64,000 bases of DNA from Candidatus Nomurabacteria bacterium GW2011_GWD2_36_14 (GCA_000991405.1 LBRL01000001.1:527989-591988), one strand, 5' to 3'. Counted from the stretch's first letter, positions 24,397-54,988 are shown. Made by a program: numbers and translations. The notes: generated by a model from the sequence alone, not told the origin.

Positions 24397-24399
24397 TAC

Positions 24400-24735
24400 C
24401 TATCTCTTCTTTGCTGAATAAGGAGCGGTAGCGGGAGTGAAGACGGGGGGATTGAGGTTTACTTTTTTCTTCTTTACAACGGGCTTTTTCTTTACTACGG
24501 CTTTTTTCACGGGAGCTTTCTTTACTGTAGTGGCCTGTTTTGTAACTGTAGGCTTTGGTGCCCCTGTATTTTCCTTTGCTAAAACTACAGAAGCAGGAAG
24601 AGCTTGTTGTGCCGTTGCCAAAACCTTACTTTCTTCTTTCTTTTTACTCAAGTAACCATCAGAAGCTAAAACGCCAAAAGAAGAAGCTGTCGCTACAAAA
24701 ATTAAAATTATTAAAACAATTGTTTTTTGTTTCAT
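24400..24735 (-). CDS. Small secreted Lys/Val-rich protein
   Basis: 111 aa; signal peptide (IVLIILIFVATASSFGVLA) and a KKAPVKKAVVKKKPVVKKKK low-complexity tail. Confidence 0.5.
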   Translation of the reverse strand: MKQKTIVLIILIFVATASSFGVLASDGYLSKKKEESKVLATAQQALPASVVLAKENTGAPKPTVTKQATTVKKAPVKKAVVKKKPVVKKKKVNLNPPVFTPATAPYSAKKR

Positions 24736-33822: not shown

Positions 33823-34692
33823 ATGGATAGTAAATATTTACCAAGTAGAATTTTCGTGATTCGTATAGTAGTTATTCTCTTAATAATAGGAGTTGTTTTC
33901 GGTGTGATTAAAATAGTGAAATATTTTAAGAATAAACCAAATAGCAAAACTCCTGTGAAAGTCTTAGTAAAAGATATTGTTCAAAAAGACAGTAATAGTA
34001 ATGGCATTGCCGACTGGGAAGAGTACCTTTGGGGACTTAACCCAAGTAAAAATGGCCCAGAGAATAAGGAGTTTATTATGGCTAAAAGGAAAACACTAGC
34101 CGAAAATAACAACACTTTATCTCCTCAAAATAATGAGGCAAAAGAAAATGAACAGTTGTCTAAGGAACTTTTCTCTGTAGTTATGTCCCTCATGCAGTCA
34201 GGAAATCTATCTGAAGAATCTATTTCTGAAGTTTCGAAAACTATAGGCTCAAAAATTGAAGTGGAGCAAATACCAGACATATACACAAAAAATATGTTAA
34301 TAATAAACAATAAAGAAGATGGAGATATTGCCTATTTCCAAGCATTTAAAGACTTAAATGAAAAGTATAAAGATGCCGACTTGGGGGGAGAGCTGACTAT
34401 AATTGCCCAAGGAATAGAAAAAAATGATCCACAAGCCTTATACATAGCAACAACCATTGCTTCATCTTATAGATCTTTTGGAAAAGAGTTAATTAAAATT
34501 CCTGTACCAGAATATCTATCAGAAGGAAACTTAAATTTGGCTAACGATTACGAAAAAGTGTCCCAATCCTTGGAAGGGATGCTAAAGATTCTAGATAATC
34601 CACTGATAGGGATGAGGGCTCTCCTTAGTTATAAAAAGTATACAGACAAGATAATGACAGATCTTGAAAATATTTCTAGCAATTTAGATTAA
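33823..34692 (+). CDS. Hypothetical membrane-anchored protein (possible first gene of the secretion locus)
   Basis: 289 aa; N-terminal TM (IFVIRIVVILLIIGVVFGVI) then a hydrophilic domain. Confidence 0.45.
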   Translation: MDSKYLPSRIFVIRIVVILLIIGVVFGVIKIVKYFKNKPNSKTPVKVLVKDIVQKDSNSNGIADWEEYLWGLNPSKNGPENKEFIMAKRKTLAENNNTLSPQNNEAKENEQLSKELFSVVMSLMQSGNLSEESISEVSKTIGSKIEVEQIPDIYTKNMLIINNKEDGDIAYFQAFKDLNEKYKDADLGGELTIIAQGIEKNDPQALYIATTIASSYRSFGKELIKIPVPEYLSEGNLNLANDYEKVSQSLEGMLKILDNPLIGMRALLSYKKYTDKIMTDLENISSNLD

Positions 34693-34727
34693 ACATTGTT
34701 ATACTATAAAGAGTAATTATTATATCC

Positions 34728-37553
34728 ATGAAAAAACAAGTAGTACAAAAAATAATACTATCGCTAATAATTTTCACACTAGTTACTCCGTACATATATC
34801 AGTCTTCTAAAGCAGAAGCTGCTAAAATAGAGTGGGATAATCCAAGTAAAAATGGTAATCCTTATAAAATACAATTGACTGATACTTTAAATGGTAAATT
34901 ACTTACCGACGTTGTTTCTTGTACAGGGTTGGTGGATTCAGGTGTAAAGGCTGTAACAACTTTTTCTTCTGATTTATTAAAAAAAGCCGTTATAAATAAA
35001 TTAAAAAAACAAAAAACAAAAACTTGTGAGCTTGCTAAAAAGGGAGCAATTTCTGCAGTGGCTGGTGCTGTAAACCTAAGTTTAACCGATATAATAAAAC
35101 AGGTTAAATGTGAGGTTGATCCTACAACGGGGATTACAAATGTAAGTGACACTGCTTCTCAAGCAAAACAGCAAGAAATATTAAACCAATCATTAAAAGA
35201 ACAAAAGAGAAAAGAATGTTTAAATGGTATTGCCATAACACTTGCTAAAAACCAACTAGCTGCTATGACTAAGTATACAATGAACTGGGTAAACTCTGGA
35301 TTTGAAGGAGACCCTATGTATGTCCGTAATATTGATACATTCATGGGAAGAATGACAGACGACATTCTTATGAAAGAACTTAATATGTTCAAGGGTCAGC
35401 CACAATACTACCCATATGGTAACAGCTTCTACCGTAGTACAATCCTTGGTAATATTGCTAGAGGTAATTTTAAAGAATCAATGAAGCAAAACTTGTCCAA
35501 TTATTTGGGATCAGGTGGACTTGGTAATGATGCGGCAAACGTAGTTGATAGATATACAAATAATTTCGGGGAAGGTGGGTGGAATGCATGGCTTGCCTTT
35601 ACTCAATACCCTCAGAATAATTATTTAGGATATACACTAAAGACAACAGAGTATATAGCTGACAAACAAAATACCCAAGTTCAAAATACCAAAGAAGAAT
35701 TGCAACAGAACAACGGTTTCCTGTCACAGAAAAAATGTGTTGTTTATGGAACTACAGAAAAAGCTGCTCAGAGAAATTCGGAAAAGGAACAAGCCCAAGC
35801 ATCACTAGCGAGAAAATTGGAGGTTAGAAATAGTCTACAGAGTGCTATGTATACAGCATGCAAAATTGTGACGAATCCTGAGTGTAAAGGAGCAAATACC
35901 AACTTTCAGATAGCAGACAATGATTATGGTGAGGAGTTCGCTCTATATGCTAAAAAGTATAGCGAGACAGATGGAGCCACACAAGGGCAAGATAGTAAGA
36001 ATTGTACTAAATGGGAAACAGTTACTCCGGGAAGTGTCATAGCAGGGAAAATAAACACATACTTGAACTCAGAAGTAACACAACTAGAACTCGTAAATGG
36101 AGTAAATGATTTCTTGTCAGGAATATTTGACTCGTTGATATCAACACTCCGAAACGAAGGTCTTTCAAGTATATCTTCTATCAATAATTCTAAGGGGGGT
36201 ACTGGTTATAATAGTCCTATATATACCGATCCTAAAACAGGAGAAACATTGACTTCAAGTAATTATACAAATGAGTCTGTGGATTTAACAAAGGATCTAG
36301 GAAATACTTACATACATGATAAGTTGGCTTATAAAGGACTTTGGAATGCTAAAACAAATACACCAAAACTATTCATGGATACGGGTATTACAAACTCATA
36401 TTATACTGTGTCTGTTGCTGGAAATACAGAAATAATTAAAAATGGATACAATGGCTGGGAAGAAGGAGACAGAGCCTTCTTTGATGGAACAAATTGGCAA
36501 AATTGGAAAAAGGGAGAATTAAACCCTATAAAGACTCGTGGGACTGTTCAAACTCAACAAGACTATTTGATTGCAGCTAGAGAAGTATTAACCATATTAC
36601 CAGGAATTATGCCGAAGCTAGGGGAGCTTGACTATTGTATTCCTGGACCAAACCCTGGCTGGCAATTGAACACAAGCGAGACATCTGACGCATTTATGGC
36701 TTATGTGGACGGGCTTGATACTGACTATACTCCTTCAGGAGGATTCCTTGGTGCCAGAGATTATACAGAAATAAAATCTCCAGACCAAAACTCAGAAATA
36801 GTTAAAACATATCAAAAAATGTTTGAAAGCCCAATAGATAAAACATTTAGTATTGCAAACATCTGGAGTAAGGTATTAAATACTTACCCTTATTCTTCAA
36901 TCATGTATACAGATACACTAAGAGAGACAGGTCTGGGATGGAAGGGGACATATCGTGAGGGAGGAGCTAAATACTCAAGATCAGAAGAAGCTATAGGGGT
37001 GGTAACAGACTTAAAAGATAAAATCTTAAACGATTTAAATTTATTCCAGACAAAATACAATACTGAAATAAACAAAATATATGGACCAAATAGTTTAATG
37101 CAAAAAGAATTTTTAGAAAATGAAAGTACCAATGAATTAACCCTAAATCCTGCCTTTTTAGAAGTGTCTAAACCGGGGTTAAACATAACAAAAGATATAA
37201 CTTCTTATAATGATACAATTAAAGAAGCAACCGATACATACACAGAAGACATAGTTACCGCAAATATAAATATCAAAAAGTTGAACCTAATAAAGGATCG
37301 TGTAAGTCAGATAATTGTAGATGCTCAGAAAAGACGAGACGTAAATCGCGAAAGAATAATTAAAGAATACAACGAAACAAATAACACAAATATTACCCGT
37401 GCAGAATATGATAAATGTGCAAAAGAAGAAAATGTTTCATTCTATGAAGACACAGAGGTCCTAAAAAGCGGCACGACTGGAACAGAAAGATGTAGTGATG
37501 GAATAGACAATGATTTGGATGGATTAGTAGATGCACAAGATCCAGATTGTTGA
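34728..37553 (+). CDS. Large secreted or surface protein with a C-terminal Cys-flanked Asp-rich (TSP3/Excalibur-like) loop
   Basis: 941 aa; signal peptide; ends in CSDGIDNDLDGLVDAQDPDC. Confidence 0.6.
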   Translation: MKKQVVQKIILSLIIFTLVTPYIYQSSKAEAAKIEWDNPSKNGNPYKIQLTDTLNGKLLTDVVSCTGLVDSGVKAVTTFSSDLLKKAVINKLKKQKTKTCELAKKGAISAVAGAVNLSLTDIIKQVKCEVDPTTGITNVSDTASQAKQQEILNQSLKEQKRKECLNGIAITLAKNQLAAMTKYTMNWVNSGFEGDPMYVRNIDTFMGRMTDDILMKELNMFKGQPQYYPYGNSFYRSTILGNIARGNFKESMKQNLSNYLGSGGLGNDAANVVDRYTNNFGEGGWNAWLAFTQYPQNNYLGYTLKTTEYIADKQNTQVQNTKEELQQNNGFLSQKKCVVYGTTEKAAQRNSEKEQAQASLARKLEVRNSLQSAMYTACKIVTNPECKGANTNFQIADNDYGEEFALYAKKYSETDGATQGQDSKNCTKWETVTPGSVIAGKINTYLNSEVTQLELVNGVNDFLSGIFDSLISTLRNEGLSSISSINNSKGGTGYNSPIYTDPKTGETLTSSNYTNESVDLTKDLGNTYIHDKLAYKGLWNAKTNTPKLFMDTGITNSYYTVSVAGNTEIIKNGYNGWEEGDRAFFDGTNWQNWKKGELNPIKTRGTVQTQQDYLIAAREVLTILPGIMPKLGELDYCIPGPNPGWQLNTSETSDAFMAYVDGLDTDYTPSGGFLGARDYTEIKSPDQNSEIVKTYQKMFESPIDKTFSIANIWSKVLNTYPYSSIMYTDTLRETGLGWKGTYREGGAKYSRSEEAIGVVTDLKDKILNDLNLFQTKYNTEINKIYGPNSLMQKEFLENESTNELTLNPAFLEVSKPGLNITKDITSYNDTIKEATDTYTEDIVTANINIKKLNLIKDRVSQIIVDAQKRRDVNRERIIKEYNETNNTNITRAEYDKCAKEENVSFYEDTEVLKSGTTGTERCSDGIDNDLDGLVDAQDPDC

Positions 37554-37624
37554 GCCACAACAACCGTAACAGCCTAAAGAGGGAAGAGTAAAAATAAGTT
37601 ATCTGATTAAATTATTAAATTAAA

Positions 37625-39223
37625 TTGTATTTTATGGAAAATAACCCTAAAAAAAGTAAAGCATTCATAATAACATTCATACTGATATTGATACTTTTGA
37701 TAGCAGGTTATTATATATACAAGAATAGAACTCAAATGTTTGATGCGAAGGGGTCTACTTCTATGAGCAAAATATTCTCGCCACTTCTAGGCACTTCTAA
37801 GACTAAAGAAGTAAAGGTTATAGAAGATCCAAATACAAAAATAACTACAACTCCAATAGTTCCTAAGAAGACTGGAGTAGTGATCACAGATGTAAACGGC
37901 AATAAGATGGTCCTATCCGAAGCAGGTGAAATACTCAAGAAAGGCGACGTACTATATATAGCAGGCTTCAACAAGAACGACCAACCAATAGTCATGAAGG
38001 CCATAGCCAATGACAAGAACAAGTCTCTGGTCTTCGGAGTGGCAGGCGAAGACATGAATAAAGGAGCCCTAGGCAACGTAATTATAGAAGGAATACTTAC
38101 TGGAGTCCCTACCAATAGGAAGGAGGGTACCCTCTGGGTAGCCAAGAATACTCTCTTCCTAAGTGACAAGGTATATGGAGGGATGACGAAGAACTCGCCA
38201 AAGGCTCCTTCGTATATAGTACCTGTCGGAAGTGTTATAAAGGTAGATCCAAAGAATGGGTCTATAAGAATAGGAGGCTTGAATGATACTCTAACTGCCA
38301 ACCTAGAGAAATTAAATCTACTACTTTTAAGTAATTCAAACATGCAACTTATAAATGCTGTTATTAGTGATCTTCGTGACTACTGGAGTTCTATATTTGG
38401 TAACGGACTCTTTGGAAATATTGACTATACAAGTGGTGGAAACATAACCCCCGGTACACCCCCTATAAATCCTATCAATATTCCAGCTGGTAATAATATA
38501 GGCGGTACTAATGTAGGTGGTGCTAACTATACTACAACTGGTAGTAATACAGAATGTTCAGATAAGATTGATAATGATGGGGATGGTCTGATAGATGAGG
38601 CTGATTCAAATTGTCATATCAGTGGAGACCTCGCTAAGGCTTATGTACCACTTCATAATTCGGAGTCAACTTCACCTGTAGACCCAAATGCTGATAAAAT
38701 AACTGATGACAATTCTTGTAAAATAATAGAACAGAATCCTTTAACCTTCACCTCTGCAGAAAAAAAAGAGCTCGATGATCTATTGCGTAAATATTATTTA
38801 ATTGCTTCTACTCTAAAAACAAAAAATGATATAAATCTTGTGTATGCTGAGATAGCACAATATAGAGCATTTATTGAACAAATAACTGATCTTACAAATC
38901 AATGTTATACTGAATTAAAATCCCCAAATTATACTGGACCAAAGACACAGTACGGAAATCCTTGGTATAAATATGATAGCAGAGGGTCTTATCTTGCAAA
39001 TAGTTTGAATTCAACTTGTAAGTACGAGAGCTCAACTACGAGTGGAAGTGGGTCCAGAAGAGGTGGAACTACCACTTCCGGATCAGCAAATGATCCTTAT
39101 TGTGAGCCAACAGTTGGAGCCAATGGTGATACCCGCCCAGAAAGATATAATTTCTGGAATATTCCAGCATTTAATTCACCAGTTGACTTGAGAGATTTCG
39201 AAATACTTTTGAATGTGTGGTAA
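37625..39223 (+). CDS. Membrane-anchored surface protein with the same Cys/Asp loop
   Basis: 532 aa; N-terminal TM; a Gly/Asn/Thr-rich linker then CSDKIDNDGDGLIDEADSNC. Confidence 0.55.
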   Translation: MYFMENNPKKSKAFIITFILILILLIAGYYIYKNRTQMFDAKGSTSMSKIFSPLLGTSKTKEVKVIEDPNTKITTTPIVPKKTGVVITDVNGNKMVLSEAGEILKKGDVLYIAGFNKNDQPIVMKAIANDKNKSLVFGVAGEDMNKGALGNVIIEGILTGVPTNRKEGTLWVAKNTLFLSDKVYGGMTKNSPKAPSYIVPVGSVIKVDPKNGSIRIGGLNDTLTANLEKLNLLLLSNSNMQLINAVISDLRDYWSSIFGNGLFGNIDYTSGGNITPGTPPINPINIPAGNNIGGTNVGGANYTTTGSNTECSDKIDNDGDGLIDEADSNCHISGDLAKAYVPLHNSESTSPVDPNADKITDDNSCKIIEQNPLTFTSAEKKELDDLLRKYYLIASTLKTKNDINLVYAEIAQYRAFIEQITDLTNQCYTELKSPNYTGPKTQYGNPWYKYDSRGSYLANSLNSTCKYESSTTSGSGSRRGGTTTSGSANDPYCEPTVGANGDTRPERYNFWNIPAFNSPVDLRDFEILLNVW

Positions 39224-39253
39224 GTAGTGAGTAGTAATAGAAAAAAATAGTAA

Positions 39254-41785
39254 GTGGTATGTAAAATAATAATGAAAAGAATTTTATCTTCTATTTTAAT
39301 ATCGTTCGTTATCCTCGCAAACTTCCTTGCGCCTTTTAGTGTAGGATGGAGTGACAAAAATAAACTCCCAAACATAGAAATAAAACAACAAAAGGCTGAG
39401 GCTGAATATAATTATGGATTAAAAGTAACTCCAACATTAGGAAACACATATATTAATCTTGGAATAGAATTAATTGAGGGAACAGCAACTGGTGATTATG
39501 CTACTATTGTTACAACATCTAGTACTGCCAAACTTGAGCTTAGAGCAACAGTATTACTAAATGATGAAAAGATAACTGATGATACTGCTAGTAATTTGGG
39601 TTCAGATAACAAAAAAACAGCCCTTAATTTAGATGGGCTAGAATCTGGAAAACCATATAAAACAAAAATTGAATTAGTAGAAGTTTTGAATAGTTTTTCT
39701 GCAAGTGGAATGCCGGGTTATGCTGGTAAAACTTCTAAAACATTATATGAAAAAATAATTGACACCCCCACAATAGAAGAAGGGGAACAAGCTGTAGTAA
39801 AAGAAGGAATAGACATAAGTGGAAAGAGTGATACACTAAAAACTCCTGTAGATAATCCCGACAACATGCCAGATTGTTCAATAGTACCAGCAAAAATAAT
39901 GGGGTGTATTGCACAAGGTTTCTATTATGTACTTTTCATGCCAACTTCATATCTTTTTGCATTGGCTGGAACCTTCTTTGATAGTACTTTTGCATATTCA
40001 GTCCAAGATACTTCCTATAGATCTGCTTTCGTAGTGCAAGGATGGGGACTTGTAAGAGACTTTTGTAATCTATTCTTCATATTTATACTTTTATATGTTG
40101 CATTTTCTACAATATTAAATGTTCACAATTTTAATACAAAACAAATAATAATAAATGTAGTAGTTATAGGATTATTCATAAACTTCAGTCTCTTTGCTAC
40201 TCAACTTATAATAGACGCATCAAATATAACTGCGAGGGTATTCTACAATTCAGATGCAATAAAAATTACAGAAAATGGGGCAAACGGAGTTACAGAAGCT
40301 ACCCCCGGCTTGGTGGTAGGTGAAGGTGGAGTTATACCTCTTTCTGCTGCCTTAGTAAACAAAGTTAATCCACAAAATTTAATTCTTCACTCTAAAGAAG
40401 TAAATAATATTCCAGACAAAGAAGGAAGAGCTAAATCCAATGCAGATGCAGCTGAAAATCTAGGGGCTGGATCATTTATACTAATAGTAATAATAGCTTC
40501 AGCTGTAAATATAGTAGGAATCATTGTTTTCCTGTCTGTAGGGCTTATGTTCATAGCTCGAGTCATAGGACTCTGGCTAGCTATGATAATGGCCCCACTG
40601 GCATTCTTCACTTATATACTTCCTGAACAAATGGCAGGAATCAAAATGATTGGATGGAAGAACTGGTGGCCAGAAACTTTCAAGCTGGCATTCCTAGCTC
40701 CAGTCTTCATGTTCTTCATGTATATAATACTCAAATTCTTGAGCTTGGACTTGATAGCAGATGTATCAAATAAAACTATTTCAAAAGACGGATTAGGATT
40801 CTTTGTGGCCACTCTTATTCCTTTCGCATTCATAATGATACTCATGTTAAAAGCAAAAGGAATTGCAAAAGATATGTCTGGAGAACTCGGACAGCAAATT
40901 ACCGGAGGTGTAGCAGCCGCAGGCGGAATGCTTCTAGGTGGCGCAGCTTTGAGTACTGCTTTCTTAGGAAGAAAGATAGTTGGTCAAGGTTTAGCTAAGG
41001 CCTCAAAAGGAGATACTGCTTCTCAACAATATATGGATCCAGCCAAAAGAGCCAATATGAATATACTTAGAAAAAGTCTTGGTTTTGTTGGTTCTGGTTT
41101 TGGTACTGGATATGGAATAAATAAGGTTCATGATTATACTGGTGGACAATTAAACAAAAAACAAAAAACAATCGAAGAAATTGACCATGCAAGACATACT
41201 GTTGATTCTGTTAAAGACAAAAGGTATAAAGATATTGAGTGGTCAAGACTTTCTAATACACAGCAACAAAATGTAAGGGGTGATTTCGTGAAAGAAAATA
41301 AGAGTAAGTGGGCACAAGATGAAGAAGACGCATATCGAAAATCAAAGAAATATAATGATAAAAAGGCACTAACGCCTACTGAGATAGCAGAACTAAGAGA
41401 TCGTGTAACAGCTAGAGCAAATAAAGAATTTGATCATGAAATAAAACTGTCTACAACAAAAGTTAAGGGGCTTAACAGGGCAATTTCACAAATTAATACA
41501 GGAAGTATGGATATAAGAAAGCTATCTGAAATAAAATCTGATAAAAGGGAAGGATTCTTTACTAAAATGCCAGTTGCTCTTACTGCCGCTATTGCTATGG
41601 GGATGCGAACAGGAATAAAAAGTAGTGGTTTAAGTGGGGGATCAATAAAGGTGGAGGGAAATTTTATGAAAGATTTAACAAACACAATCAGCGATTCATT
41701 AAAGCAAGCAAAAGTTAATGTTGATATTAGCCATGTTGGAGAAACAAAAAGTAGTGCAGACCCACACGCAGGAGGACATCATTAG
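39254..41785 (+). CDS. VirB6/TrbL-like polytopic membrane protein with a large periplasmic N-domain and a coiled-coil C-tail
   Basis: 843 aa; signal peptide, an extracytoplasmic domain of about 200 aa, then 6-7 TM helices (for example FIFILLYVAFSTI, VVVIGLFINFSLFATQLII, FILIVIIASAVNIVGIIVFLSVGLMFIARVIGLWLAMIMAPLAFF, LAFLAPVFMFFMYIIL, FFVATLIPFAFIMILML), then a charged C-terminus. Confidence 0.5.
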   Translation: MVCKIIMKRILSSILISFVILANFLAPFSVGWSDKNKLPNIEIKQQKAEAEYNYGLKVTPTLGNTYINLGIELIEGTATGDYATIVTTSSTAKLELRATVLLNDEKITDDTASNLGSDNKKTALNLDGLESGKPYKTKIELVEVLNSFSASGMPGYAGKTSKTLYEKIIDTPTIEEGEQAVVKEGIDISGKSDTLKTPVDNPDNMPDCSIVPAKIMGCIAQGFYYVLFMPTSYLFALAGTFFDSTFAYSVQDTSYRSAFVVQGWGLVRDFCNLFFIFILLYVAFSTILNVHNFNTKQIIINVVVIGLFINFSLFATQLIIDASNITARVFYNSDAIKITENGANGVTEATPGLVVGEGGVIPLSAALVNKVNPQNLILHSKEVNNIPDKEGRAKSNADAAENLGAGSFILIVIIASAVNIVGIIVFLSVGLMFIARVIGLWLAMIMAPLAFFTYILPEQMAGIKMIGWKNWWPETFKLAFLAPVFMFFMYIILKFLSLDLIADVSNKTISKDGLGFFVATLIPFAFIMILMLKAKGIAKDMSGELGQQITGGVAAAGGMLLGGAALSTAFLGRKIVGQGLAKASKGDTASQQYMDPAKRANMNILRKSLGFVGSGFGTGYGINKVHDYTGGQLNKKQKTIEEIDHARHTVDSVKDKRYKDIEWSRLSNTQQQNVRGDFVKENKSKWAQDEEDAYRKSKKYNDKKALTPTEIAELRDRVTARANKEFDHEIKLSTTKVKGLNRAISQINTGSMDIRKLSEIKSDKREGFFTKMPVALTAAIAMGMRTGIKSSGLSGGSIKVEGNFMKDLTNTISDSLKQAKVNVDISHVGETKSSADPHAGGHH

Positions 41786-41833
41786 TTTTAAGTAATAAGT
41801 AGAGTATAGTAAGAAAATTAGAATATAAAAAAT

Positions 41834-42565
41834 ATGGACCAAACAGAATTACAAGAAAAAATAGTGTTATACTACCAAAAGCTTCCAGAGGAAACTAAGG
41901 TACTTTTTGCTGGAATGTCTTGGCTTGAAACTCTTAAGGAAATAGATACAAAGTACTCTCTAAACGATGCTCAAATAGAAACCCTAGGGACAGAGACAAC
42001 AATACTCCTCCTTGGAATAATAAGTCTAGAAGATTACGTGCAAACTATAAAGGATGAAATAAAACTTGAAGGCACAGGAACAGATAATATGCTAGATGAA
42101 ATAGGAGATAAAATATTGAAAGACATAGCGCCTCTTCTGTATGAATCTTATGAAAAGAATGTGATGGAACTAGAAAAAGAGAATGTAAGTACTGATACTG
42201 TTCCTCTTCCACCTTATGCAGAAAAGAAACAAGCAGTAGAACCAAAAGTAAATCCTATCATTAATTCTGCATATTCTCACAATAATGAGACAGATATGTA
42301 CAGGGAGCATGGAATAGATGTGATATCCAACGACTATCCACAGACTACAAAAATGGACATACTTAAAAAGCAGGAAGAATTACAAGAAGAAAAGCATAAT
42401 GATAATTCAAACATAATAGCCAATAAGCTTTTCAATAATACTGCGAGTCAAAAGGTTGTGACAGATTATTCTATTCCAAAGGTTAATCCTCTTCTCAACA
42501 ACAATTCCTTGCCACAAGGTGGAATATCTACAAAGCCTCATGATCCATATCATGAGGAAATATAA
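41834..42565 (+). CDS. Acidic hypothetical protein (T4SS-locus component)
   Basis: 243 aa, Glu/Asp-rich, no TM. Confidence 0.4.
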   Translation: MDQTELQEKIVLYYQKLPEETKVLFAGMSWLETLKEIDTKYSLNDAQIETLGTETTILLLGIISLEDYVQTIKDEIKLEGTGTDNMLDEIGDKILKDIAPLLYESYEKNVMELEKENVSTDTVPLPPYAEKKQAVEPKVNPIINSAYSHNNETDMYREHGIDVISNDYPQTTKMDILKKQEELQEEKHNDNSNIIANKLFNNTASQKVVTDYSIPKVNPLLNNNSLPQGGISTKPHDPYHEEI

Positions 42566-42567
42566 AA

Positions 42568-42990
42568 ATGCAATTTAAAGTACCACAATTTATAGATATA
42601 GAAGATAAGATATTTGGTCCTTTCACCTTTCGCCAATTCGCGTACCTTATAGGTGGAGGGGGGATAGTATACGTCTTGTACAGACTACTGCCATTCTGGA
42701 TCAGTATCTTCCTCATACTTCCCATCATAGGCCTGACTATATGCCTAGTCTTTGTAAAGATAAATACTAAACCTTTCGAATACTACCTAGAAGCGGCATT
42801 TACTTACTTCATATCTAGTAAGCTTTATATCTGGAAGCAAAGATTGGTCAAAAAGAGTGACAAGCTAGAAGAGGTAAGTGCCCTTACAACAATGTCCAAC
42901 GTACCCATGCTGACAGAGAATAAACTCAAGGATTTATCGTGGAGCTTAGATATTCAAGACAAGAAAGATAATAAAATAATTAATAGTTAA
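42568..42990 (+). CDS. Small two-TM protein, VirB3-like (ConD/TcpE/PrgI-type) by position and topology
   Basis: 140 aa; two hydrophobic helices (FAYLIGGGGIVYVLYRLL; ISIFLILPIIGLTICLVFV). Its start overlaps the stop of the preceding gene. This is the typical position upstream of VirB4 in Gram-positive T4SS operons. Confidence 0.4.
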   Translation: MQFKVPQFIDIEDKIFGPFTFRQFAYLIGGGGIVYVLYRLLPFWISIFLILPIIGLTICLVFVKINTKPFEYYLEAAFTYFISSKLYIWKQRLVKKSDKLEEVSALTTMSNVPMLTENKLKDLSWSLDIQDKKDNKIINS

Positions 42991-43006
42991 GAATTAATAA
43001 TTAATA

Positions 43007-43357
43007 ATGAAGGGGAATAATATTATAAGGGAAAAAAGTTATAGTTTTAGTCTTAAAATTATTAAGATATATCAAGAATTAACTCAAGAAAAGAAGGAAT
43101 TCATACTATCAAAACAATTAATTCGTTCTGGTACATCTATAGGTGCAAATATCGAAGAATCAACAGGTGCCCAGTCTAAAAATGACTTCATCGCTAAATT
43201 GAGTATCTCGTACAAAGAAACATGGGAAACTCTTTATTGGTTAAGACTTTTGACCGATAGTGGTTTCCTTAATAAGAAACAGTCTGATATTCTTATTTTT
43301 GACTGCGAAGAGTTACTTAAAATACTAGGAGCCATACTAAAAACCTCCAAATCCTAG
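43007..43357 (+). CDS. Four-helix-bundle protein (23S rRNA intervening-sequence protein / Avd-like family)
   Basis: 116 aa; SYSFSLKIIKIY...LIRSGTSIGANIEES...FIAKLSISYKETWETLYWLRL matches the TIGR02436/PF05635-type family. It is flanked by (TTAATAA)n arrays at 42970-43009 and 43364-43464. Confidence 0.7.
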   Translation: MKGNNIIREKSYSFSLKIIKIYQELTQEKKEFILSKQLIRSGTSIGANIEESTGAQSKNDFIAKLSISYKETWETLYWLRLLTDSGFLNKKQSDILIFDCEELLKILGAILKTSKS

Positions 43358-43468
43358 GGTTTCATTATTAATTATTCAATGTGTGATATAATAAAAAGGT
43401 AATTAAAGTGTTTTGATTTATGTTTCTAAATTATTAATTATTAATTCTTAATTATTAATTACTTACCT

Positions 43469-44122
43469 ATGGCAATAGACGCAAAAGCGGCACAAAGTTT
43501 CGTACCAATAAAAGAAGTTCGCAATGGAGTCATCGTACTGAAGGATGGGGGGCTTCGAGCCGTCCTTATCGCTTCATCTATCAACCTTTCACTTAAGGCC
43601 TCCGATGAGCAAGTCGCTATTATCAACCAATTCCAAAACTTCCTAAACGGGCTAGATTTCCCCACACAGATAGTCATACAATCTAGACGTCTCGATATAC
43701 GACCATACCTACTCATGCTTGATGGTCGCCTCAAAGAACAAACAGAACCACTTCTAAAAATTCAAACCAAGGAGTACATAGACTTCATTAAATCTTTCAC
43801 CGATGAAGTAAATATTATGACCAAGACCTTCTTTGTTGTCGTACCTTATAGTTCAAGTGTCATTAATGCTAAGAGTGGATTAATGGATAGTATTCTAAGT
43901 GGTGGCACTCAAAAGAAGCCAGTGGACGACAGCAAGAAGGCTGTGGACTTGGCAACCTTTGAAGAGAAGCGTAGCCAGCTCGAACAGAGAACCAACGTCA
44001 TTATAAGTGGACTAAGTGGCATAGGAATACGAAGTAGTGTACTGAAGACAGACGAAGTTGTAGAACTTTTCTATAAAACATTCAACCCAGGAGATATTAG
44101 TCAGGGAATAAAATTACAATAA
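43469..44122 (+). pseudogene. virB4: VirB4-family ATPase, N-terminal 217-aa fragment (separated from the rest by one in-frame TAA)
   Basis: VPIKEVRNGVIVLKDGGLRAVLIASSINLSLKASDEQVAIINQFQNFLNGLDFPTQIV matches the N-terminus of Gram-positive VirB4 homologues (TcpF/TraE/PrgJ type). The stop at 44120-44122 is followed 6 nt later, in the same frame, by the ATG of the next ORF. Confidence 0.55.
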
Positions 44123-44128
44123 AACAAA

Positions 44129-45958
44129 ATGTCATTATTTTCATCAATATTTAAAAAAGGGGATGATAAAAAGCCACAGGGTCAAGTGATGCCTGTCTTG
44201 CCTACGGAAATATACAAGGCGGCAAATCTGGAACTCCAAGACGTCATTGCTCCTTCGGCTCTACAAATAACTCCAAAAGGTATTAACCTTGGGGACAAGA
44301 TAGCACGAACCTTCTTCGTTATTTCCTATCCTCGATACTTAACCGACAACTGGTTCTCACCGATTGTGAACCTCGACAAAGTCTTCGATGTATCTATATT
44401 CATCCACCCTATTGAAACTGCAGATATATTGAGATCATTCCAAAAGAAGGTAGCTGAGGTTCAAAGTCAGATATCTGTACGAGAGGCGAAGGGTCTAGTA
44501 CGTGACCCAATGCTCGATACTGCCTATCAAGACTTAGAAGGACTTCGCGATAACTTGATGCAGGCTCAGGAGAAAATGTTTGACGTAGGACTATATATTA
44601 CAGTCTATGCCGACAACGAGAACGACATGTTCAAAATAGAAAGTGAGATCAAGTCCCTTCTTGACTCCAAGCTTGTATATATAAAGCCCGCTCTCTTCCA
44701 GCAAGACGAAGGGTTCAAGAGCGTCATACCACTTGGTATGGACGTGCTGGGTATACACCAGAAGCTCAACACTGAGCCACTTTCTAGTCTCTTCCCATTT
44801 GTGTCTTTCGACCTTACTTCTGATAAGGGAATTCTATATGGGGTAAACAGACACAATAGTAGTCTTATCATCTTTGATAGATTCTCTCTACCAAACTACA
44901 ACTCCATTACTTTCGCAACAGCTGGAGCTGGTAAGTCGTATGCAACCAAGCTTGAGATTATTCGTACACTCATGTTCGATGCAGAAGTCATAGTCATAGA
45001 CCCCGAAAGAGAGTATGAATACCTAGCAGAAGCAATAGGGGGTAGATACTTCAATATTTCACTTTCTTCCGATCACCACATCAACCCTTTCGACCTTCCT
45101 ATCCCTAGACCAGATGAAACTGCGGCTGATGTACTTCGTGCCAATACTATTAATCTTGTAGGACTCTTCCGCATAATGCTAGGAGGACTGACTCCTGAAG
45201 AAGATTCTATAATCGACAGAGCTATTACCGAGACTTATGCCTTGAAAGATATAACAGCCGAATCCAACTTTGCCAACATTGAGCCACCACTACTTTCAGA
45301 CTTTGAAGTCGTACTGGCAGGAATGGATGGAAGTAACTCCCTTATACAACGTCTTACCAAGTATACTCACGGTTCTTGGGCTTCGTTTATAAACAAACCT
45401 TCCAATGTAGATATCAATCGCAAATTCGTCGTCTTCTCTGTTCGAGATATGGAGGACGAGCTTAAACCTGTGGCTATGTATATAGTTACTCACTTCATAT
45501 GGAATGCTGTCCGCAAGACTCTTAAGAAGAGACTCTTAGTCGTTGACGAGGCTTGGTGGATGATGAAGTCAGAAGACACAGCTTCGTTCCTATACTCTAT
45601 TGCCAAGAGAGGGCGTAAATACTATCTAGGACTTGCCACTATTACTCAGGACGTAGGAGACTTCATGAAGAGTCCTTATGGAGTGCCTATTGTGACCAAC
45701 TCTTCTATTCAACTTCTACTTAAACAGTCGCCGGCCACTATCGACGTCCTTCAGAAGACTTTCAACCTGACAGATGAGGAGAAGTACTTGCTTCTGGAAG
45801 CCAATGTGGGAGAGGGTATCTTCTTCGCAGGACTAAAGCACGTCGCAGTGAAGACTATTGCCTCGTATACAGAAGACCAGATCATTACCTCTGATCCTTC
45901 GCAAATCTTGGCCATTAGAAAAGCCAAGGATGATCTTGAAATGGCGGGAGGAAAGTAA
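44129..45958 (+). CDS. virB4: VirB4/TrbE/ConE-like T4SS ATPase (C-terminal 609 aa)
   Basis: The VirB4 mid-domain pattern (VIAPSALQITPKGINLGDKIARTFFVISYPRYLTDNWF) fits the IAP...G...R-hh-V-x-YPR...W pattern. Walker A is FATAGAGKS. Walker B is LLVVDEAWWMM, and the DEAW motif is typical of VirB4/TraC. Confidence 0.7.
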   Translation: MSLFSSIFKKGDDKKPQGQVMPVLPTEIYKAANLELQDVIAPSALQITPKGINLGDKIARTFFVISYPRYLTDNWFSPIVNLDKVFDVSIFIHPIETADILRSFQKKVAEVQSQISVREAKGLVRDPMLDTAYQDLEGLRDNLMQAQEKMFDVGLYITVYADNENDMFKIESEIKSLLDSKLVYIKPALFQQDEGFKSVIPLGMDVLGIHQKLNTEPLSSLFPFVSFDLTSDKGILYGVNRHNSSLIIFDRFSLPNYNSITFATAGAGKSYATKLEIIRTLMFDAEVIVIDPEREYEYLAEAIGGRYFNISLSSDHHINPFDLPIPRPDETAADVLRANTINLVGLFRIMLGGLTPEEDSIIDRAITETYALKDITAESNFANIEPPLLSDFEVVLAGMDGSNSLIQRLTKYTHGSWASFINKPSNVDINRKFVVFSVRDMEDELKPVAMYIVTHFIWNAVRKTLKKRLLVVDEAWWMMKSEDTASFLYSIAKRGRKYYLGLATITQDVGDFMKSPYGVPIVTNSSIQLLLKQSPATIDVLQKTFNLTDEEKYLLLEANVGEGIFFAGLKHVAVKTIASYTEDQIITSDPSQILAIRKAKDDLEMAGGK

Positions 45959-45999
45959 GTTGTGGATATAGTATCTCTATCGTATAATATAAAGAGATA

Positions 46000-46995
46000 A
46001 TGATGAATAATAAATTCATAAAAATTTTAGGAATAATTATGGTAATAAGCATACTTTCTATGCCATCTTTTTCTTTGGCTGAATCTGAAATATCTATACG
46101 TGAAAGTGACATAGATGTACAAATGTGGCCAGAAATTCCAGAGCCTTATCAAGATGTAAACATAAAGCTAGTAAGTTATGCTACAGACTTAAACAAGGCA
46201 ATCATTGAATGGAGAGTGGGCTCAAATATAGTACTTTCTGGATATGGAAAAATAAACTATTCAATGAAAGCTCCGGGCCCAAATATAACTACAAATATTA
46301 TATTATCTATAACTCCAGTAAATTCTATTAGTAAAATAATAAAACAAATTGTAGTACAACCCTCAGATATAGAGGTACTATGGGAAGCAGTTGATGGGTA
46401 TACGCCACCTTTCTATAAGGGTAAGTCTTTAATATCAAAGGAGGGAACTATAAAATTGGTAGCAATACCAAACTCTTCAACTATTAAAAGCGGTAGGGGA
46501 AATATTTCATACAAATGGATGAGGGACGACGCAACAGTAGAAGAGGTATCGGGATATAACAAAGATTCATATATATTTGAAAATAATGTCCTCAAATCAA
46601 ATGAGACTATAAACTTAACTGCTTCTTCTGTAGACGGATCATATAATGCAAATAAAAATTTAGATATACCTATATACTCTCCTAAGGTATTATTCTACAA
46701 AAAGTCTCCTACAGAGGGAGTGCAGTATAATAAAGTACTAGATAGTAATACAATCTTTACAGGAGACGAAATGACTATAGTGGCAGAGCCCTACTTCTTG
46801 GCAATAAAAGGGAATGAAAATTTGTTTAATTATACTTGGAATATAAATGGCGATCCTATAAAAACTCCCTCAAAGAAAACAGAGCTTACTATTCGCCCAA
46901 CAGCAAGAGGAGGGTATGCCAATATTGACGTGACTTTGGAAAATGTTAACAAGATTTTCCAAAAAGTTTCTGGGGCATTAAAATTAACACTATAA
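46000..46995 (+). CDS. Secreted beta-rich hypothetical protein
   Basis: 331 aa; signal peptide (ILGIIMVISILSMPSFSLA). Confidence 0.45.
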   Translation: MMNNKFIKILGIIMVISILSMPSFSLAESEISIRESDIDVQMWPEIPEPYQDVNIKLVSYATDLNKAIIEWRVGSNIVLSGYGKINYSMKAPGPNITTNIILSITPVNSISKIIKQIVVQPSDIEVLWEAVDGYTPPFYKGKSLISKEGTIKLVAIPNSSTIKSGRGNISYKWMRDDATVEEVSGYNKDSYIFENNVLKSNETINLTASSVDGSYNANKNLDIPIYSPKVLFYKKSPTEGVQYNKVLDSNTIFTGDEMTIVAEPYFLAIKGNENLFNYTWNINGDPIKTPSKKTELTIRPTARGGYANIDVTLENVNKIFQKVSGALKLTL

Positions 46996-47015
46996 TACTT
47001 GTCCCGTTAGAAGTC

Positions 47016-48617
47016 TTGATTATTATGAGAACAAACATAAACATGAAAGAATACAAAAAAACAACAAAAAAATTATTAAATACCTCTTCTAATGGGATGA
47101 AAAAAATCTTTTCTAAAATAATAATATCCTTTGTTTTGTTTAGTTTTATTATTCCTTTGTCAATAAATTTAAATAGGAGTGAAGTTTTGGCGGCTGAAAC
47201 TTGGTATTATACAAGGTTAGGTGATATAGGATACACTGAAAGGGTAAATTCCATAGATTATGCAATGGAATCTGATTGTCTAAAAGATCTTAAAAGCGTT
47301 CATTCAAGTCGAGAACCTAGTACTGTTTGTTATAAAAAAAATGTCGTTGTTCAAACAGAGAATAATACAGAAGGAACATATTGGTTTAGGGACATGGATA
47401 ATGCCTTCAGGGGAACATTAGGCCCGCTTAAACTTCCCGGTTTTACAACATCACAAGAATGTGAGAATGCAAAAAATACATATTGGGGTCCAAATTCTAA
47501 TAATGCCGCCAGTAAATTACCTTGTTATTTAATATCTAGTGAACAGGTACTTTTAAATTTTGAGCTCGAAAAACAAAAAAACGCAAAAATGCCAGGTGAT
47601 GATTCTGTGCCAATCACTCCCAAAATCGGAGCAACGGAAAATAATAATATTTACAAAATGCTAGTACCTCTGCCGGGGATTACTTGTATGGATAATACGG
47701 GTAAAGATCCAAGCTGTATCGGAAACAATGTAGGGACGTATTTAAATTTTATCTTCAAATTTGGTATTGGACTATGTGCAGCGCTTGCAGTAGTCATGCT
47801 TATAATCTACGGTATTACATATATGGGGGATGAATCAATCTTTGGTAAGACTGAGGCAAAGAAGAAAATGTTTGGAGCTATCATAGGGCTTATAATTGCA
47901 ATAGGTGGCTGGGCACTTCTAAACACAATCAACCCAGACCTGACGGGGAAGAATGGATTGGTAATCGATTCGGTAGAGGTTAAAGCTCGTACAGATGATC
48001 CTGATTTTATTCAAAACATTTCTTCTCTTGATACAAAAAATGTAACTGCATTAAGTTTTAGTGATCCATTATTTAAAGGATATTTAGCTCATCAACAAGG
48101 ACCTGCAGGTGCTGCTGCTATTATTTGGGCTACAAGCAAGGGATTGAATGAGGTTCCAAGTGATAATCCTTTCACAAACTCACCTGTAAATACAAATATG
48201 AAGAGTAATTTCCCTGCAACAGATGCAACTAAAGTAATAGGTACTTCTGTTTTAACCCCAGCAAACTTCTTAAGATACTGGTCGTTAAAAACAGCCGCAG
48301 CAAAAGCAAAAACTGGTCCAATTTTCCCCGCTATTGAGGCTGCATTAAAAAAAGTTTCTTCTGAGACAGGGGTACCTCTGGAGACTCTGGTGGCAATCTG
48401 TCGAATAGAATCTGCTGCTGGCTGTACAAACGAAAGCTCTATAACAAAATCAAATGGTAGCTTTCAGGGATTATTTCAAATAGGTAGTGCGGCGTGGAAT
48501 GATTATGGAAATAAAAATGGAAATATACTTGACCCATATGAAAACGCACTTGCCGCAGCTAAATACTACAAATCTAATCTTCAATCTATACAAAATTTAT
48601 TATCAAAAAATAGCTAA
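47016..48617 (+). CDS. VirB1-like lytic transglycosylase (SLT domain) fused to a pilin-like TM hairpin and a Cys-containing N-domain
   Basis: 533 aa; signal/TM; central two-helix hairpin FIFKFGIGLCAALAVVMLIIYGITYMGDESIFGKTEAKKKMFGAIIGLIIAIGGWALL; C-terminal SLT-like motifs (VAICRIESAAG, GLFQIGSAAW, AAAKYY). Confidence 0.55.
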   Translation: MIIMRTNINMKEYKKTTKKLLNTSSNGMKKIFSKIIISFVLFSFIIPLSINLNRSEVLAAETWYYTRLGDIGYTERVNSIDYAMESDCLKDLKSVHSSREPSTVCYKKNVVVQTENNTEGTYWFRDMDNAFRGTLGPLKLPGFTTSQECENAKNTYWGPNSNNAASKLPCYLISSEQVLLNFELEKQKNAKMPGDDSVPITPKIGATENNNIYKMLVPLPGITCMDNTGKDPSCIGNNVGTYLNFIFKFGIGLCAALAVVMLIIYGITYMGDESIFGKTEAKKKMFGAIIGLIIAIGGWALLNTINPDLTGKNGLVIDSVEVKARTDDPDFIQNISSLDTKNVTALSFSDPLFKGYLAHQQGPAGAAAIIWATSKGLNEVPSDNPFTNSPVNTNMKSNFPATDATKVIGTSVLTPANFLRYWSLKTAAAKAKTGPIFPAIEAALKKVSSETGVPLETLVAICRIESAAGCTNESSITKSNGSFQGLFQIGSAAWNDYGNKNGNILDPYENALAAAKYYKSNLQSIQNLLSKNS

Positions 48618-48624
48618 TTAATAA

Positions 48625-49824
48625 ATGCCCAGAAAAACAAAAATTATTTTAATATCAGTGTTCATATTTGTTATAGCAGTTTTGCTTGGTGTTTATTTCT
48701 ATAACAAAAGTAAAACTCCAAATACTGTGGATCCAAATGCAGGCTTCTACCAAAAGTTCAATCCATTTGGAACAAGCACCAAGGTAGATAATGGGGGAGA
48801 TACTACAAATACAACTACTGATAATGTAGACACAACCCTAAAAGTGAATTCAAGATTTCACAAACTCACAGACTTCGCAGTAGCTGGAGCAACATCATTC
48901 GAAGACACAAGGGATGAGGCTACAGTACCATCTCTACGCTACGTAGAGCGTGCTACAGGCCATGTATACCAAATGTACCTCGATACAAAAGTTACTGGCA
49001 AGATATCAAACTCTACAATCCCTGGAGTATATGAAACTATATTCGACGGTAAGGCCAACTCGGTCATCTATAGATATGCATCAGAAGACAACAAGTCTAT
49101 TACGAGCTTCCTTGCCACTCTCGGAGGGAAGAGTAGCTTCCTGAATTCAAACATACTAGAAGTTGCTTTGTCTCCTGACAAAAGTAAGTTCTTCTCTGTT
49201 ATAGAAACCACAAATGGAGTCATAGGGGTCACAAAGTCTTTCGAAGAGACTAAGACTAGCCAAGTCTTCACCTCAGCTTTCTCTGAGTGGCTACCACAGT
49301 GGGCGACAACTGGTAATATATATCTGACAACCAAACCTTCATACTTGGTAGAGGGAAGTGTGTTCAACTTAAATATTGCAAATGGAACACTTTCAAAGAT
49401 TCTAGGTAGAGTGCAAGGACTTACAACTCTAGCCAACAAAGATGGTACATCATTGCTTTATGGAGCATCGCTAGACAATGGCCCAAGGCTCAATATTTTC
49501 AATATTAAGAATCATACGTCAGAAGACCTAGGTAAATATGGGCTTCCTGAGAAGTGTGTCTGGAGTAGCGACAATATAAATGTCTACTGTGCTGTACCCA
49601 ATACAATAGTAGGGAACCAGTACCCCGACTCTTGGTACCAAGGAGTTATATCTTTCGATGACTTCTTCGTTAAAATAAATACAGTTACTAAAGAATCTGC
49701 AACTCTAGCTAATTCGAAGGATGAAGTACCTGTAGATGGTACAAATCTATTCTTGAACAAAGATGAGAGTAAATTATTCTTTATAAATAAGAAAGACTCC
49801 ACTTTATGGAGTCTTGACCTCTAA
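48625..49824 (+). CDS. Membrane-anchored beta-propeller-like (TolB-like) hypothetical protein
   Basis: 399 aa; N-terminal TM (IILISVFIFVIAVLLGVYF) then a repetitive beta-rich domain. Confidence 0.4.
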   Translation: MPRKTKIILISVFIFVIAVLLGVYFYNKSKTPNTVDPNAGFYQKFNPFGTSTKVDNGGDTTNTTTDNVDTTLKVNSRFHKLTDFAVAGATSFEDTRDEATVPSLRYVERATGHVYQMYLDTKVTGKISNSTIPGVYETIFDGKANSVIYRYASEDNKSITSFLATLGGKSSFLNSNILEVALSPDKSKFFSVIETTNGVIGVTKSFEETKTSQVFTSAFSEWLPQWATTGNIYLTTKPSYLVEGSVFNLNIANGTLSKILGRVQGLTTLANKDGTSLLYGASLDNGPRLNIFNIKNHTSEDLGKYGLPEKCVWSSDNINVYCAVPNTIVGNQYPDSWYQGVISFDDFFVKINTVTKESATLANSKDEVPVDGTNLFLNKDESKLFFINKKDSTLWSLDL

Positions 49825-51034: not shown

Positions 51035-51049
51035 TCACCTATTGTAGCA

Positions 51050-51158
51050 TAATAATTAATAATTAAAAATTAATAATTAATAATGTAAAAAACCTAAGCA
51101 AAGCTTAGGTTTTTAGTGTATTGTGTTTAAATTATTAATTATTAATTATTAATTAATT
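51050..51158. terminator. Hairpin flanked by inverted (TTAATAA)n arrays
   Basis: (taataat)n - gtaaaaaacctaagcaaagcttaggttttt - (attatta)n; the same architecture as 24301-24396. Confidence 0.6.
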
Positions 51159-51359
51159 TAGTGGATCATAGTGCTTCTTCTGCCAAGGGTGACACCTGAG
51201 AATTCTTCTGAAACCCTTATAAATGCCTATAATTGAGCCGTATTTAATAATTGCTTCCTTTGTATATTCTGAACATGTAGGAAGAAAAACACATGAACTA
51301 TGTGACCTGAGGGGAATCTTCTGATAGAGATTTATAAGCTTAATAAATACTTTTTTCAT
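51153..51359 (-). CDS. yidD: Membrane protein insertion efficiency factor YidD
   Basis: 68 aa; CVFLPTCSEYTKEAIIKYG and RILRCHPW are YidD signatures. Confidence 0.85.
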   Translation of the reverse strand: MKKVFIKLINLYQKIPLRSHSSCVFLPTCSEYTKEAIIKYGSIIGIYKGFRRILRCHPWQKKHYDPLN

Positions 51360-54688: not shown

Positions 54689-54963
54689 CCCTTAATATTA
54701 TGGATTACAATCATATAAAAAATTATTTAGAAAAGTTTAAAAACCTCCTTTTTACCAAAGAAGAAATATATCAAATAGTTTCTAGGGCAATAGAAGACAA
54801 TATACATCTTAAAATTGAAACCAAAAATATACAAATAAAACCACCTTTTTTATACATAAAAGCCTCTCCATTAGTTCGTAATGAGATAATGATAAATAAA
54901 GAAAAAATCCTGAAAGATATATTACTCTTATCTCCTCAAAGTAATTTAAAAGATATAAGATAA
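54685..54963 (+). CDS. Small hypothetical protein, possibly DUF721/YaaB-like
   Basis: 92 aa immediately downstream of dnaN, where DUF721-family genes commonly sit; the similarity is weak and judged by eye only. Confidence 0.3.
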   Translation: MALNIMDYNHIKNYLEKFKNLLFTKEEIYQIVSRAIEDNIHLKIETKNIQIKPPFLYIKASPLVRNEIMINKEKILKDILLLSPQSNLKDIR

Positions 54964-54988
54964 TTAATAATTAATAATTATAAATACC

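Follow-up and report, generated by a model that had tools for sequence, protein, structure and literature searches.

An origin-proximal, Patescibacteria-type secretion locus of Candidatus Nomurabacteria whose pilin is fused to a polymorphic hydrolase

The type IV secretion systems (T4SSs) of Patescibacteria have recently been surveyed as a group. Their VirB4 ATPases form a monophyletic clade nested in the MPF-FATA class; TrsD, PrgI and VirB2-like pilins are abundant beside virB4, relaxases are almost absent, VirB8 is rarely found outside the class ABY1, and in Paceibacteria the neighbourhood of virB4 is that of dnaA, dnaN, rnpA, ksgA and rpmH (Quinonero-Coronel et al. 2025; PMC12102498). In Saccharibacteria, a homologous gene cluster of S. 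epibionticum, SEML1_0006-0019, is essential for epibiotic growth (Wang et al. 2023); this essentiality is independent of ComEC, and competence of the same organism needs ComEC and type IV pili. Here we analyse a locus of this kind in 64,000 nucleotides of the genome of Candidatus Nomurabacteria bacterium GW2011_GWD2_36_14 (GCA_000991405.1, LBRL01000001.1:527989-591988), a stretch called the window below and numbered from its first letter.

Twelve co-directional + strand genes, tightly spaced with inter-gene gaps of 2-111 nt, occupy positions 33823-49824. Eleven of them had been singled out by an initial annotation made from the sequence alone, and the + strand open reading frames (ORFs) that it described at 34728-49824 are indeed there; the twelfth, at 33823-34692, is a further conserved gene. 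The placing of the locus near the origin region was also right: ksgA and a UvrD/PcrA helicase gene precede the locus, and downstream it is followed by jag, yidC, yidD, rnpA and rpmH on the - strand and, beyond these, by dnaA and dnaN (yidD and rpmH are small ORFs within the window). All ORFs of the locus are intact and its GC content does not differ from that of the flanks. An alternative genetic code was rejected, since TGA, TAA and TAG each terminate long ORFs, and a scan for promoters and terminators returned counts at chance level and was uninformative.

The window matches every feature listed for T4SSs of the Patescibacteria clade: a VirB4 that falls within MPF-FATA, a TrsD beside it, a PrgI/VirB3, a VirB2-like pilin by virB4, the hydrolase of VirB1 type to which virB4 is linked in Paceibacteria, no nearby relaxase, and a chromosomal site by dnaA, dnaN, rnpA, ksgA and rpmH. 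The locus is a Patescibacteria-type T4SS: a real finding, already published in 2025 (PMC12102498) and not new. Our additions, polymorphism of a pilin-hydrolase fusion and a structural assignment of VirB6, are both modest. The motor and pilus-related genes are as follows.

44129-45958, + strand: motor ATPase of the system, corresponding to the C-terminal two thirds of VirB4 (Walker A ATAGAGKS, Walker B VVDEAW)
43469-44122, + strand: TrsD-type protein of 217 aa, the split-off VirB4 N-terminal domain (NCBIfam)
42568-42990, + strand: small membrane protein of the PrgI family, equivalent to VirB3 (PF12666)
47016-48617, + strand: tripartite pilin-hydrolase protein of 533 aa (SLT, T4SS_pilin, NF045849)
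39254-41785, + strand: p843, a predicted 'extended' VirB6-like polytopic membrane protein of 843 aa (structure and profile)

The ATPase had been called VirB4-type on its DEAW Walker B and an IAP...YPR motif, both of which are visible in the translation, and hidden Markov models (HMMs) and PDB matches agree. It scores 364.9 bits, above the cut-off of 325, with the NCBIfam model NF045971 ('VirB4-like conjugal transfer ATPase, CD1110 family'), matches PF19044 (1.6e-24) and AAA_10 in Pfam, and has as its nearest solved relatives a Gram-positive VirB4 (PDB 4ag5, 3.6e-37) and R388 TrwK (3e-5). When membership of the FtsK/HerA family was considered instead, the NCBIfam, Pfam and PDB matches decided for VirB4.

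The motor is encoded in two pieces. The virB4 ORF covers positions 182-732 of the whole-length VirB4 model and the trsD ORF its N-terminal ~130, with matches to NF045975 VirB4_plasma at positions 104-233 (1e-9), to NF041427 TrsD (5e-6) and to the CD1110 model at positions 2-133; together the two make up a split VirB4. In the window they are parted by a single in-frame TAA (44120-44122). A genome scan with a single representative of each species recovered 587 relatives, of which the best 80 loci (VirB4 identity 76-93%) all come from Paceibacteria-type metagenome-assembled genomes (MAGs); loci of this set are numbered L003 and so on. TrsD is a separate ORF in 76 of 76 of them, with a gap and frame relative to virB4 that vary freely, so that the split is a stable two-gene state, and readthrough of the stop codon or a pseudogene can be rejected. 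The small protein annotated in the VirB3 position matches PF12666 above its cut-off (1.8e-10, 41.6 bits against 27) and TcpE weakly; in other systems PrgI/VirB3 anchors VirB4 at the membrane.

The pilin-hydrolase protein has three parts: a signal sequence with a variable, Cys-containing ectodomain; a VirB2-like two-helix hairpin (aa ~205-315, nt 47628-47960); and a C-terminal SLT domain (aa 446-527, nt 48351-48596). Its true start is probably the ATG at 47097. The SLT domain scores above the PF01464 cut-off (2.1e-5, 24.5 bits against 21.3), in keeping with the lytic transglycosylase in the VirB1 role that had been proposed for this gene. The hairpin of the window itself matches PF18895 and PF04956 weakly and the NCBIfam model NF045849 (Mbov_0395 pilin-like) at 8.8e-6; PF18895 (T4SS_pilin) recognizes 24 of 25 orthologues, the best at 1.8e-8. 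Among orthologues only about 110 residues, the two-helix hairpin, are conserved, bounded by the invariant motifs YxLLAP upstream and LNTINPxL downstream. The tail that follows is exchanged between loci—SLT in the window, L003 and L004; VanY/M15, NlpC/P60, YkuD, amidase or CHAP elsewhere—and the 72 tails of at least 60 aa fall into 22 BLAST clusters, with at least five tail classes present even where VirB4 is at least 85% identical to that of the window. A hairpin-only scan of 1.84 billion representative proteins retrieved 10,337 at E <=1e-3; a Pfam census of 100 of the best 150 matches counted T4SS_pilin in 77, VanY in 30, SLT in 9 (and SLT_2 in 2), YkuD in 9, NlpC/P60 in 6 and Amidase_2 in 4.

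One pilin module per locus is the rule (68 of 80; two in 4), whereas Saccharibacteria have several small pilin genes in arrays, with separate peptidase and lysozyme genes. L015, L061, L062 and L073 have two pilin-module ORFs in or beside the locus, possibly the start of the pilin arrays of other classes. The fusion is absent from the 2025 survey, which reports pilins and VirB1 homologues near virB4 (PMC12102498), and literature searches gave no description of it.

The structure of p843 was predicted from an alignment of 89 homologues. The model has a mean pLDDT (predicted local distance difference test) of 76, rising above 90 over the membrane core at residues 205-550; it comprises an N-terminal beta-sandwich ectodomain of FnIII/C2-like form (~28-190, about 160 residues), the helical transmembrane core (~205-550) and a helical C-terminal region predicted to be cytoplasmic. 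It resembles the VirB6 of R388 (TrwI), in a PDB entry from the R388 cryo-electron microscopy work. When families of the locus were aligned by hhalign with single pCF10, Tn916 and pGO1 proteins, p843 found its best match in pGO1 TrsL, a TrbL-family VirB6; this comparison is insensitive for all locus families, even PrgI against PrgI reaching only 6.5%, and its negatives mean little. A precomputed tag for PF19590, a TrbL-like family, on a few p843 homologues was not reproducible and serves as a lead only. Structure and profile comparison, the two bases of the call, suggest that p843 is VirB6-like, and its architecture fits what a recent review terms an 'extended VirB6'. Of the VirB6-like protein with 6-7 transmembrane segments put forward at the outset, then, the topology (about seven hydrophobic segments) stands and a structural and profile match is added; support from sequence HMMs is not.

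Beyond the phylum, the gene order of the locus is closest to the TrsC-TrsD-TrsE arrangement of pGO1-type plasmids. In pGO1/pSK41 of Staphylococcus (trsA-trsM), a pilin-like TrsB annotated as CagC family, TrsC (VirB3), TrsD and TrsE (VirB4) follow in order, a membrane protein and the peptidoglycan hydrolase TrsG come after TrsE, TrsL is a TrbL-family VirB6, and TrsD/VirB4 is likewise a split pair; however, pGO1 is a plasmid with a coupling protein (TrsK), relaxase, topoisomerase and SSB, and its pilin-like and hydrolase genes are separate. The pCF10 system of Enterococcus shares the VirB4 family CD1110 (PrgJ), the Pfam family of PrgI and a multidomain wall hydrolase, PrgK, encoded beside VirB4. 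It differs in its single-gene VirB4, short VirB6 (PrgH), VirB8-like PrgL, LPXTG adhesins PrgB and PrgC, coupling protein PcfC and relaxase; no pilin-like gene is annotated in the pCF10 record. The Trw system of R388, from a diderm and solved by cryo-electron microscopy, has equivalents of VirB5, VirB7-10 and VirB11 that were not found in the window locus, and its VirB6 lacks the extra N- and C-terminal domains of p843; the organism of the window is considered monoderm. Helicobacter pylori ComB, compared via generic T4SS families only, differs in having the outer-membrane parts B7-B10 and in working with ComEC.

Conservation of the locus was assessed by tblastn of all window proteins. Nearly all of the ~43 full-length loci have one gene order: uvrD, ksgA, p289, p941, (p532), p843, (p243), prgI, trsD, virB4, p331, the pilin-hydrolase gene, p399, jag, yidC, rnpA, dnaA, dnaN, pbp. 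The remaining members of this order encode the following.

33823-34692, + strand: p289, first gene of the block, with an N-terminal membrane anchor, a mostly helical ectodomain and a DxDxDG-type acidic loop DSNSNGIADWEE
34728-37553, + strand: p941, large Sec-type secreted or surface protein (signal-like segment, acidic double-disulfide repeat)
37625-39223, + strand: p532, membrane-anchored surface protein with an acidic double-disulfide repeat (NF033662, 1.7e-9)
41834-42565, + strand: p243, acidic cytoplasmic protein (no hydrophobic segment)
46000-46995, + strand: p331, membrane helix or signal sequence and three tandem Ig/FnIII-like domains (AlphaFold2 model)
48625-49824, + strand: p399, N-terminal membrane anchor and probable TolB-like beta-propeller (family profile)

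Within this common order, rates of divergence differ widely. Median identities in the 80 loci are 80% for VirB4, 64% for DnaA, 59% for TrsD, 58% for DnaN, 49% for PrgI and KsgA and 47.5% for YidC, against 35% for p399, 32% for p331 and p843 and 28% for p941; the extracellular parts thus stand at 28-35% in the same loci. In every paired locus VirB4 exceeds DnaA (54 of 54) and DnaN (52 of 52) in conservation, a ranking that the choice of loci by VirB4 similarity may inflate. TrsD was detected in all 80 loci and PrgI in 76. VirB4 and p331 each have identical (100%) counterparts in 'Candidatus Nomurabacteria' MAGs, and among the 120 best VirB4 matches (87-100% identity; a ranking by similarity, not a tree) all named ones are from Nomurabacteria, Paceibacterota or Patescibacteria. 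L003, L007, L008, L011, L012, L014 and others come from GenBank records (TPA assemblies) titled 'uncultured Candidatus Saccharibacteria bacterium', with VirB4 80-90% identical to that of Nomurabacteria and full synteny of the Paceibacteria type; these titles look like taxonomic mislabels.

Such data bear directly on whether the locus could be an integrated conjugative element, or the decaying remnant of one, that happens to lie near the origin. The VirB4, PrgI and TrsD families do come from conjugative plasmids and integrated elements, the window does contain a tyrosine recombinase, and a sporadic, selfish-looking insertion (see below) sits inside the locus. Yet dozens of species share both the position and the gene order, VirB4 is better conserved than DnaA, the ORFs are intact and the composition uniform, and the window ORFs that were scanned include no relaxase, coupling protein or flanking integrase. 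An ordinary integrated conjugative element is excluded by the constancy of the site, which in virtually all related species examined lies between ksgA and jag/dnaA, and we consider this origin for the locus highly improbable; the comparisons of sequence and synteny indicate instead that it is a core, vertically inherited machine. No relaxase, VirD4/TcpA coupling protein or replication-initiator family was found in Pfam scans of window ORFs of at least 100 aa (the 566-aa ORF at 61202-62902 excepted), and inspection of six unannotated window ORFs (93-915 aa) by eye revealed no Walker A motif. The sole tyrosine recombinase (12428-13420) is Xer-like; 21 kb separate it from the locus, with pnp, ksgA and uvrD in between, and its neighbours are housekeeping genes. 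The earlier claim that the window has no relaxase, VirD4, integrase or replication gene holds, accordingly, for all but the integrase, for which this recombinase must be entered. Its corollary, a use other than conjugation, is supported by the missing relaxase, coupling protein and adjacent integrase together with the fixed site, and the same inference has been published for the phylum (PMC12102498; Wang et al. 2023).

The surface and accessory proteins belong largely to this lineage, and p289, p941, p331 and p399 are not described in the papers on Patescibacteria T4SSs (PMC12102498; Wang et al. 2023). p289, with one hydrophobic segment (residues 3-37), occupies the interval from ksgA to p941 in most of the loci extending to that point, and has no match in Pfam, NCBIfam or PDB, profile search included. 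p941 has a signal-like segment at residues 5-24, 12 Cys, a core at ~150-500 (GGW, TPGS and an invariant Cys) conserved in 44 loci, and a C-terminal acidic double-disulfide repeat (NF033662, 1.1e-8, residues 918-941); it has no Pfam or PDB homologue, a PDB profile search was null, and a Pfam scan of its orthologues returned only sporadic adhesin-type add-ons. It is classed as a lineage-specific T4SS accessory. p532 (hydrophobic segment at residues 8-34) is a variable accessory with tblastn matches in 10 of 80 loci, and neither it nor p941 has detectable relatives outside this lineage beyond the acidic double-disulfide repeat. Acidic Cys/Asp loops recur in these proteins, at aa 918-941 of p941 and 306-331 of p532 (1e-8 to 1e-9), with a DxDxDG-like loop at aa 56-71 of p289; they are probable Ca2+-binding or docking motifs common to the extracellular parts.

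p331, found in 77 of 80 loci, is the most widely retained extracellular accessory. Its AlphaFold2 model (pLDDT 87) is matched by Foldseek to multi-Ig proteins (Sidekick, Hoc; best E 8.6e-9), and a PDB profile search gave nothing significant; as a candidate for the missing VirB8 it was rejected, model and fold search both giving three Ig-like domains and not NTF2. p399 is present in 67 of 80 loci. The membrane anchor originally assigned to it is borne out, and its beta-propeller is probable, on weak signals: E 0.023 for the family profile against TolB (PDB 7mx5), and among 31 orthologues PD40 repeats in 4 and PG_binding_1 in 3. p243 is conserved over its N-terminal 125 aa in 29 loci and has no Pfam or PDB match, PDB profile search included; a helical module (LPxxxQ...) is duplicated in the family, whose C-terminal DPY (D237 P238 Y239) is invariant and could be an ATPase docking tail or a substrate signal.

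How such a machine might work can be approached from the parts it retains. The four parts that make up the pilus-biogenesis and inner-membrane core of solved T4SSs are kept: the pilin hairpin, PrgI/VirB3, TrsD with VirB4, and the VirB6-like platform. VirB2, VirB3, VirB4 and VirB6 are reportedly the pilus-building parts in the cryo-electron microscopy work on R388, and since they build the pilus in that solved machine, assembly of a filament or conduit is the most economical reading of the locus. TrsD/VirB4, held at the membrane by PrgI, would pull the pilin hairpin out of the membrane, and the VirB6 platform would be the site where the hairpin is built into a short filament or conduit across the cell's own wall. 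The hydrolase domain, being on one polypeptide with the pilin, would cut peptidoglycan at the site of assembly and probably also the wall of an attached host cell, with the Ig-like, propeller and large secreted proteins serving to scaffold or target host contact. That the structure faces the host is suggested by the fast exchange of hydrolase types and the fast evolution of exposed parts. DNA would not be mobilised by conjugation; cargo might be taken up or exported. A vertically inherited, origin-proximal Patescibacteria T4SS, descended from the conjugation machinery of monoderms (MPF-FATA) and acting in this manner, is the explanation we favour, with moderate confidence.

If the direction were inward, the locus would be an uptake machine like ComB of H. 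pylori or Ced of archaea, importing DNA, nucleotides or other host molecules that a reduced genome cannot make. ComB, a precedent for import, has VirB2/3/4/6-type parts and no relaxase or coupling protein, a parts list that the locus resembles; uptake through the T4SS has been proposed by specialists for Saccharibacteria; VirB4 has a similarity to CedB (8.8e-7, 27.9 bits against a cut-off of 700) that is weak and generic to the ATPase clade; and a ComM-like gene lies at 18789-20378. On the other hand, the locus has no DNA-binding or channel component of ComEC or ComEA type, competence in S. epibionticum proceeds via ComEC and type IV pili while its T4SS is essential independently of ComEC, and the sequence gives no sign of transport direction. 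We judge an uptake function rather unlikely.

If the direction were outward, the locus could be an effector exporter that does without a coupling protein, pushing Sec-exported proteins, possibly p941, p532 and the hydrolase domains, out of the cell or into the host. Ptl of Bordetella works by Sec-dependent export without a coupling protein, and Brucella VirB is another T4SS lacking one; several proteins of the locus have N-terminal signal-like segments, and the polymorphic C-terminal enzyme domains resemble the logic of polymorphic toxins. No variable, immunity-like gene follows the hydrolase, however, the next gene being the conserved p399; the surface proteins, too, are positionally conserved like structural parts. 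Dedicated export of this kind seems to us quite unlikely.

The exchange of tails admits a more specific reading within the favoured scheme of filament or conduit assembly: that the VirB2-like pilin of Paceibacteria is a three-part precursor, that the swapped enzymes act on the host as 'drill heads', either borne by the T4SS filament or set free at it, and that YxLLAP and LNTINPxL are processing sites. Maturation of the RP4 pilin TrbC at two ends would be an analogue. We put this forward tentatively, as a doubtful but specific proposal.

Several considerations weigh against the explanation that we favour. p843, alone or as a family, has no sequence match in Pfam, NCBIfam or PDB, which leaves the machine with a VirB6 devoid of sequence-HMM support, and no VirB8-like or VirB5-like part was identified, the best-placed candidate, p331, being Ig-like (models were made of p843 and p331). 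A coupling protein may be encoded elsewhere in the genome; VirD4 homologues lie far from virB4 in most Patescibacteria (PMC12102498). Bulky N- and C-terminal domains on a pilin would impede canonical VirB2 packing unless they were cleaved off; hydrolase swapping, for its part, could reflect no more than a loose need for the cell's own wall to be cut by an enzyme of whatever kind. To these must be added the bias in the choice of loci noted above, and the fact that the function of the T4SS is termed 'completely unknown' even in Saccharibacteria.

One gene inside the block is foreign to the T4SS.

42974-43464, + strand: inserted cassette, not a T4SS part, carrying a gene for a PF05635 '23S rRNA IVS protein' (intervening-sequence protein; 43007-43357, 116 aa; Pfam)

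The 116-aa ORF matches PF05635 at 2e-27. An AU-rich inverted repeat built from heptads (35 nt, 94% complementary) encloses the cassette, whose predicted RNA fold (z-score -4.1) has an outer stem that closes the whole ORF. The gene occurs in only 4 of the 80 related loci, at differing positions: in L053 it lies at ~8376 and in L064 between trsD and virB4 (~9360-9800), flanked by inverted repeats that differ from species to species. Several of the trsD-virB4 spacers of L024, L049, L048, L038 and L041 are free of ORFs and have similar short tandem units in inverted orientation, and may be footprints or empty cassettes. In the window the palindrome arms are tandem heptads, (TTAATTA)n, a motif with 24 occurrences against 1.3 expected; the same arms flank GC-rich, terminator-like hairpins at 24296-24402 (z -10.6) and 51046-51162 (z -6.4), and further sites of the family are at 7347-7366 and 54962-54981. 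The cassette looks like a 23S rRNA intervening sequence in architecture, but one placed in operon or mRNA spacers and not in rRNA; AU-rich stem cassettes of this sort are possibly RNase III substrates or mobile palindromes.

Other genes of the window deserve mention. The 566-aa ORF at 61202-62902 (- strand), 11 kb from the T4SS, encodes the type IV pilus assembly ATPase PilB (PDB PilB, 2.8e-99), so that the two envelope machines on which Saccharibacteria depend, the T4SS and the essential type IV pilus, are both represented in the window by some of their parts. The + strand stretch 18399-20378, which precedes the T4SS by 14 kb, encodes a zinc-finger protein of DksA/TraR type and, after it, the ComM/YifB-like ATPase mentioned above, of the Mg-chelatase family, a family associated with competence. 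A 551-aa cysteine-rich protein (22645-24300, + strand) has many CxxC pairs throughout and a weak match to a treble-clef zinc finger. Just upstream of uvrD, a 915-aa protein without a family match (27571-30318, + strand) has four 'ENPINF(M/L)APTGS(Q/H/L)P' repeats preceding a long charged region, probably a coiled coil.

Few machines have been shown to be indispensable to cultivated Patescibacteria living as epibionts, and the T4SS is among them. The window offers a clean, fully syntenic example from Paceibacteria, with a motor more constrained than DnaA and exposed parts that evolve fast; it is not a new kind of system. The fusion of a pilin to a polymorphic enzyme provides a concrete and testable handle on it. 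Were the enzyme to act on the wall of the host, the T4SS would be tied to host breaching and specificity, in a class few of whose hosts have been identified; and if the enzymes do prove to be drill heads, replacement of the tail between sister species would track the chemistry of host walls, and hence host range.

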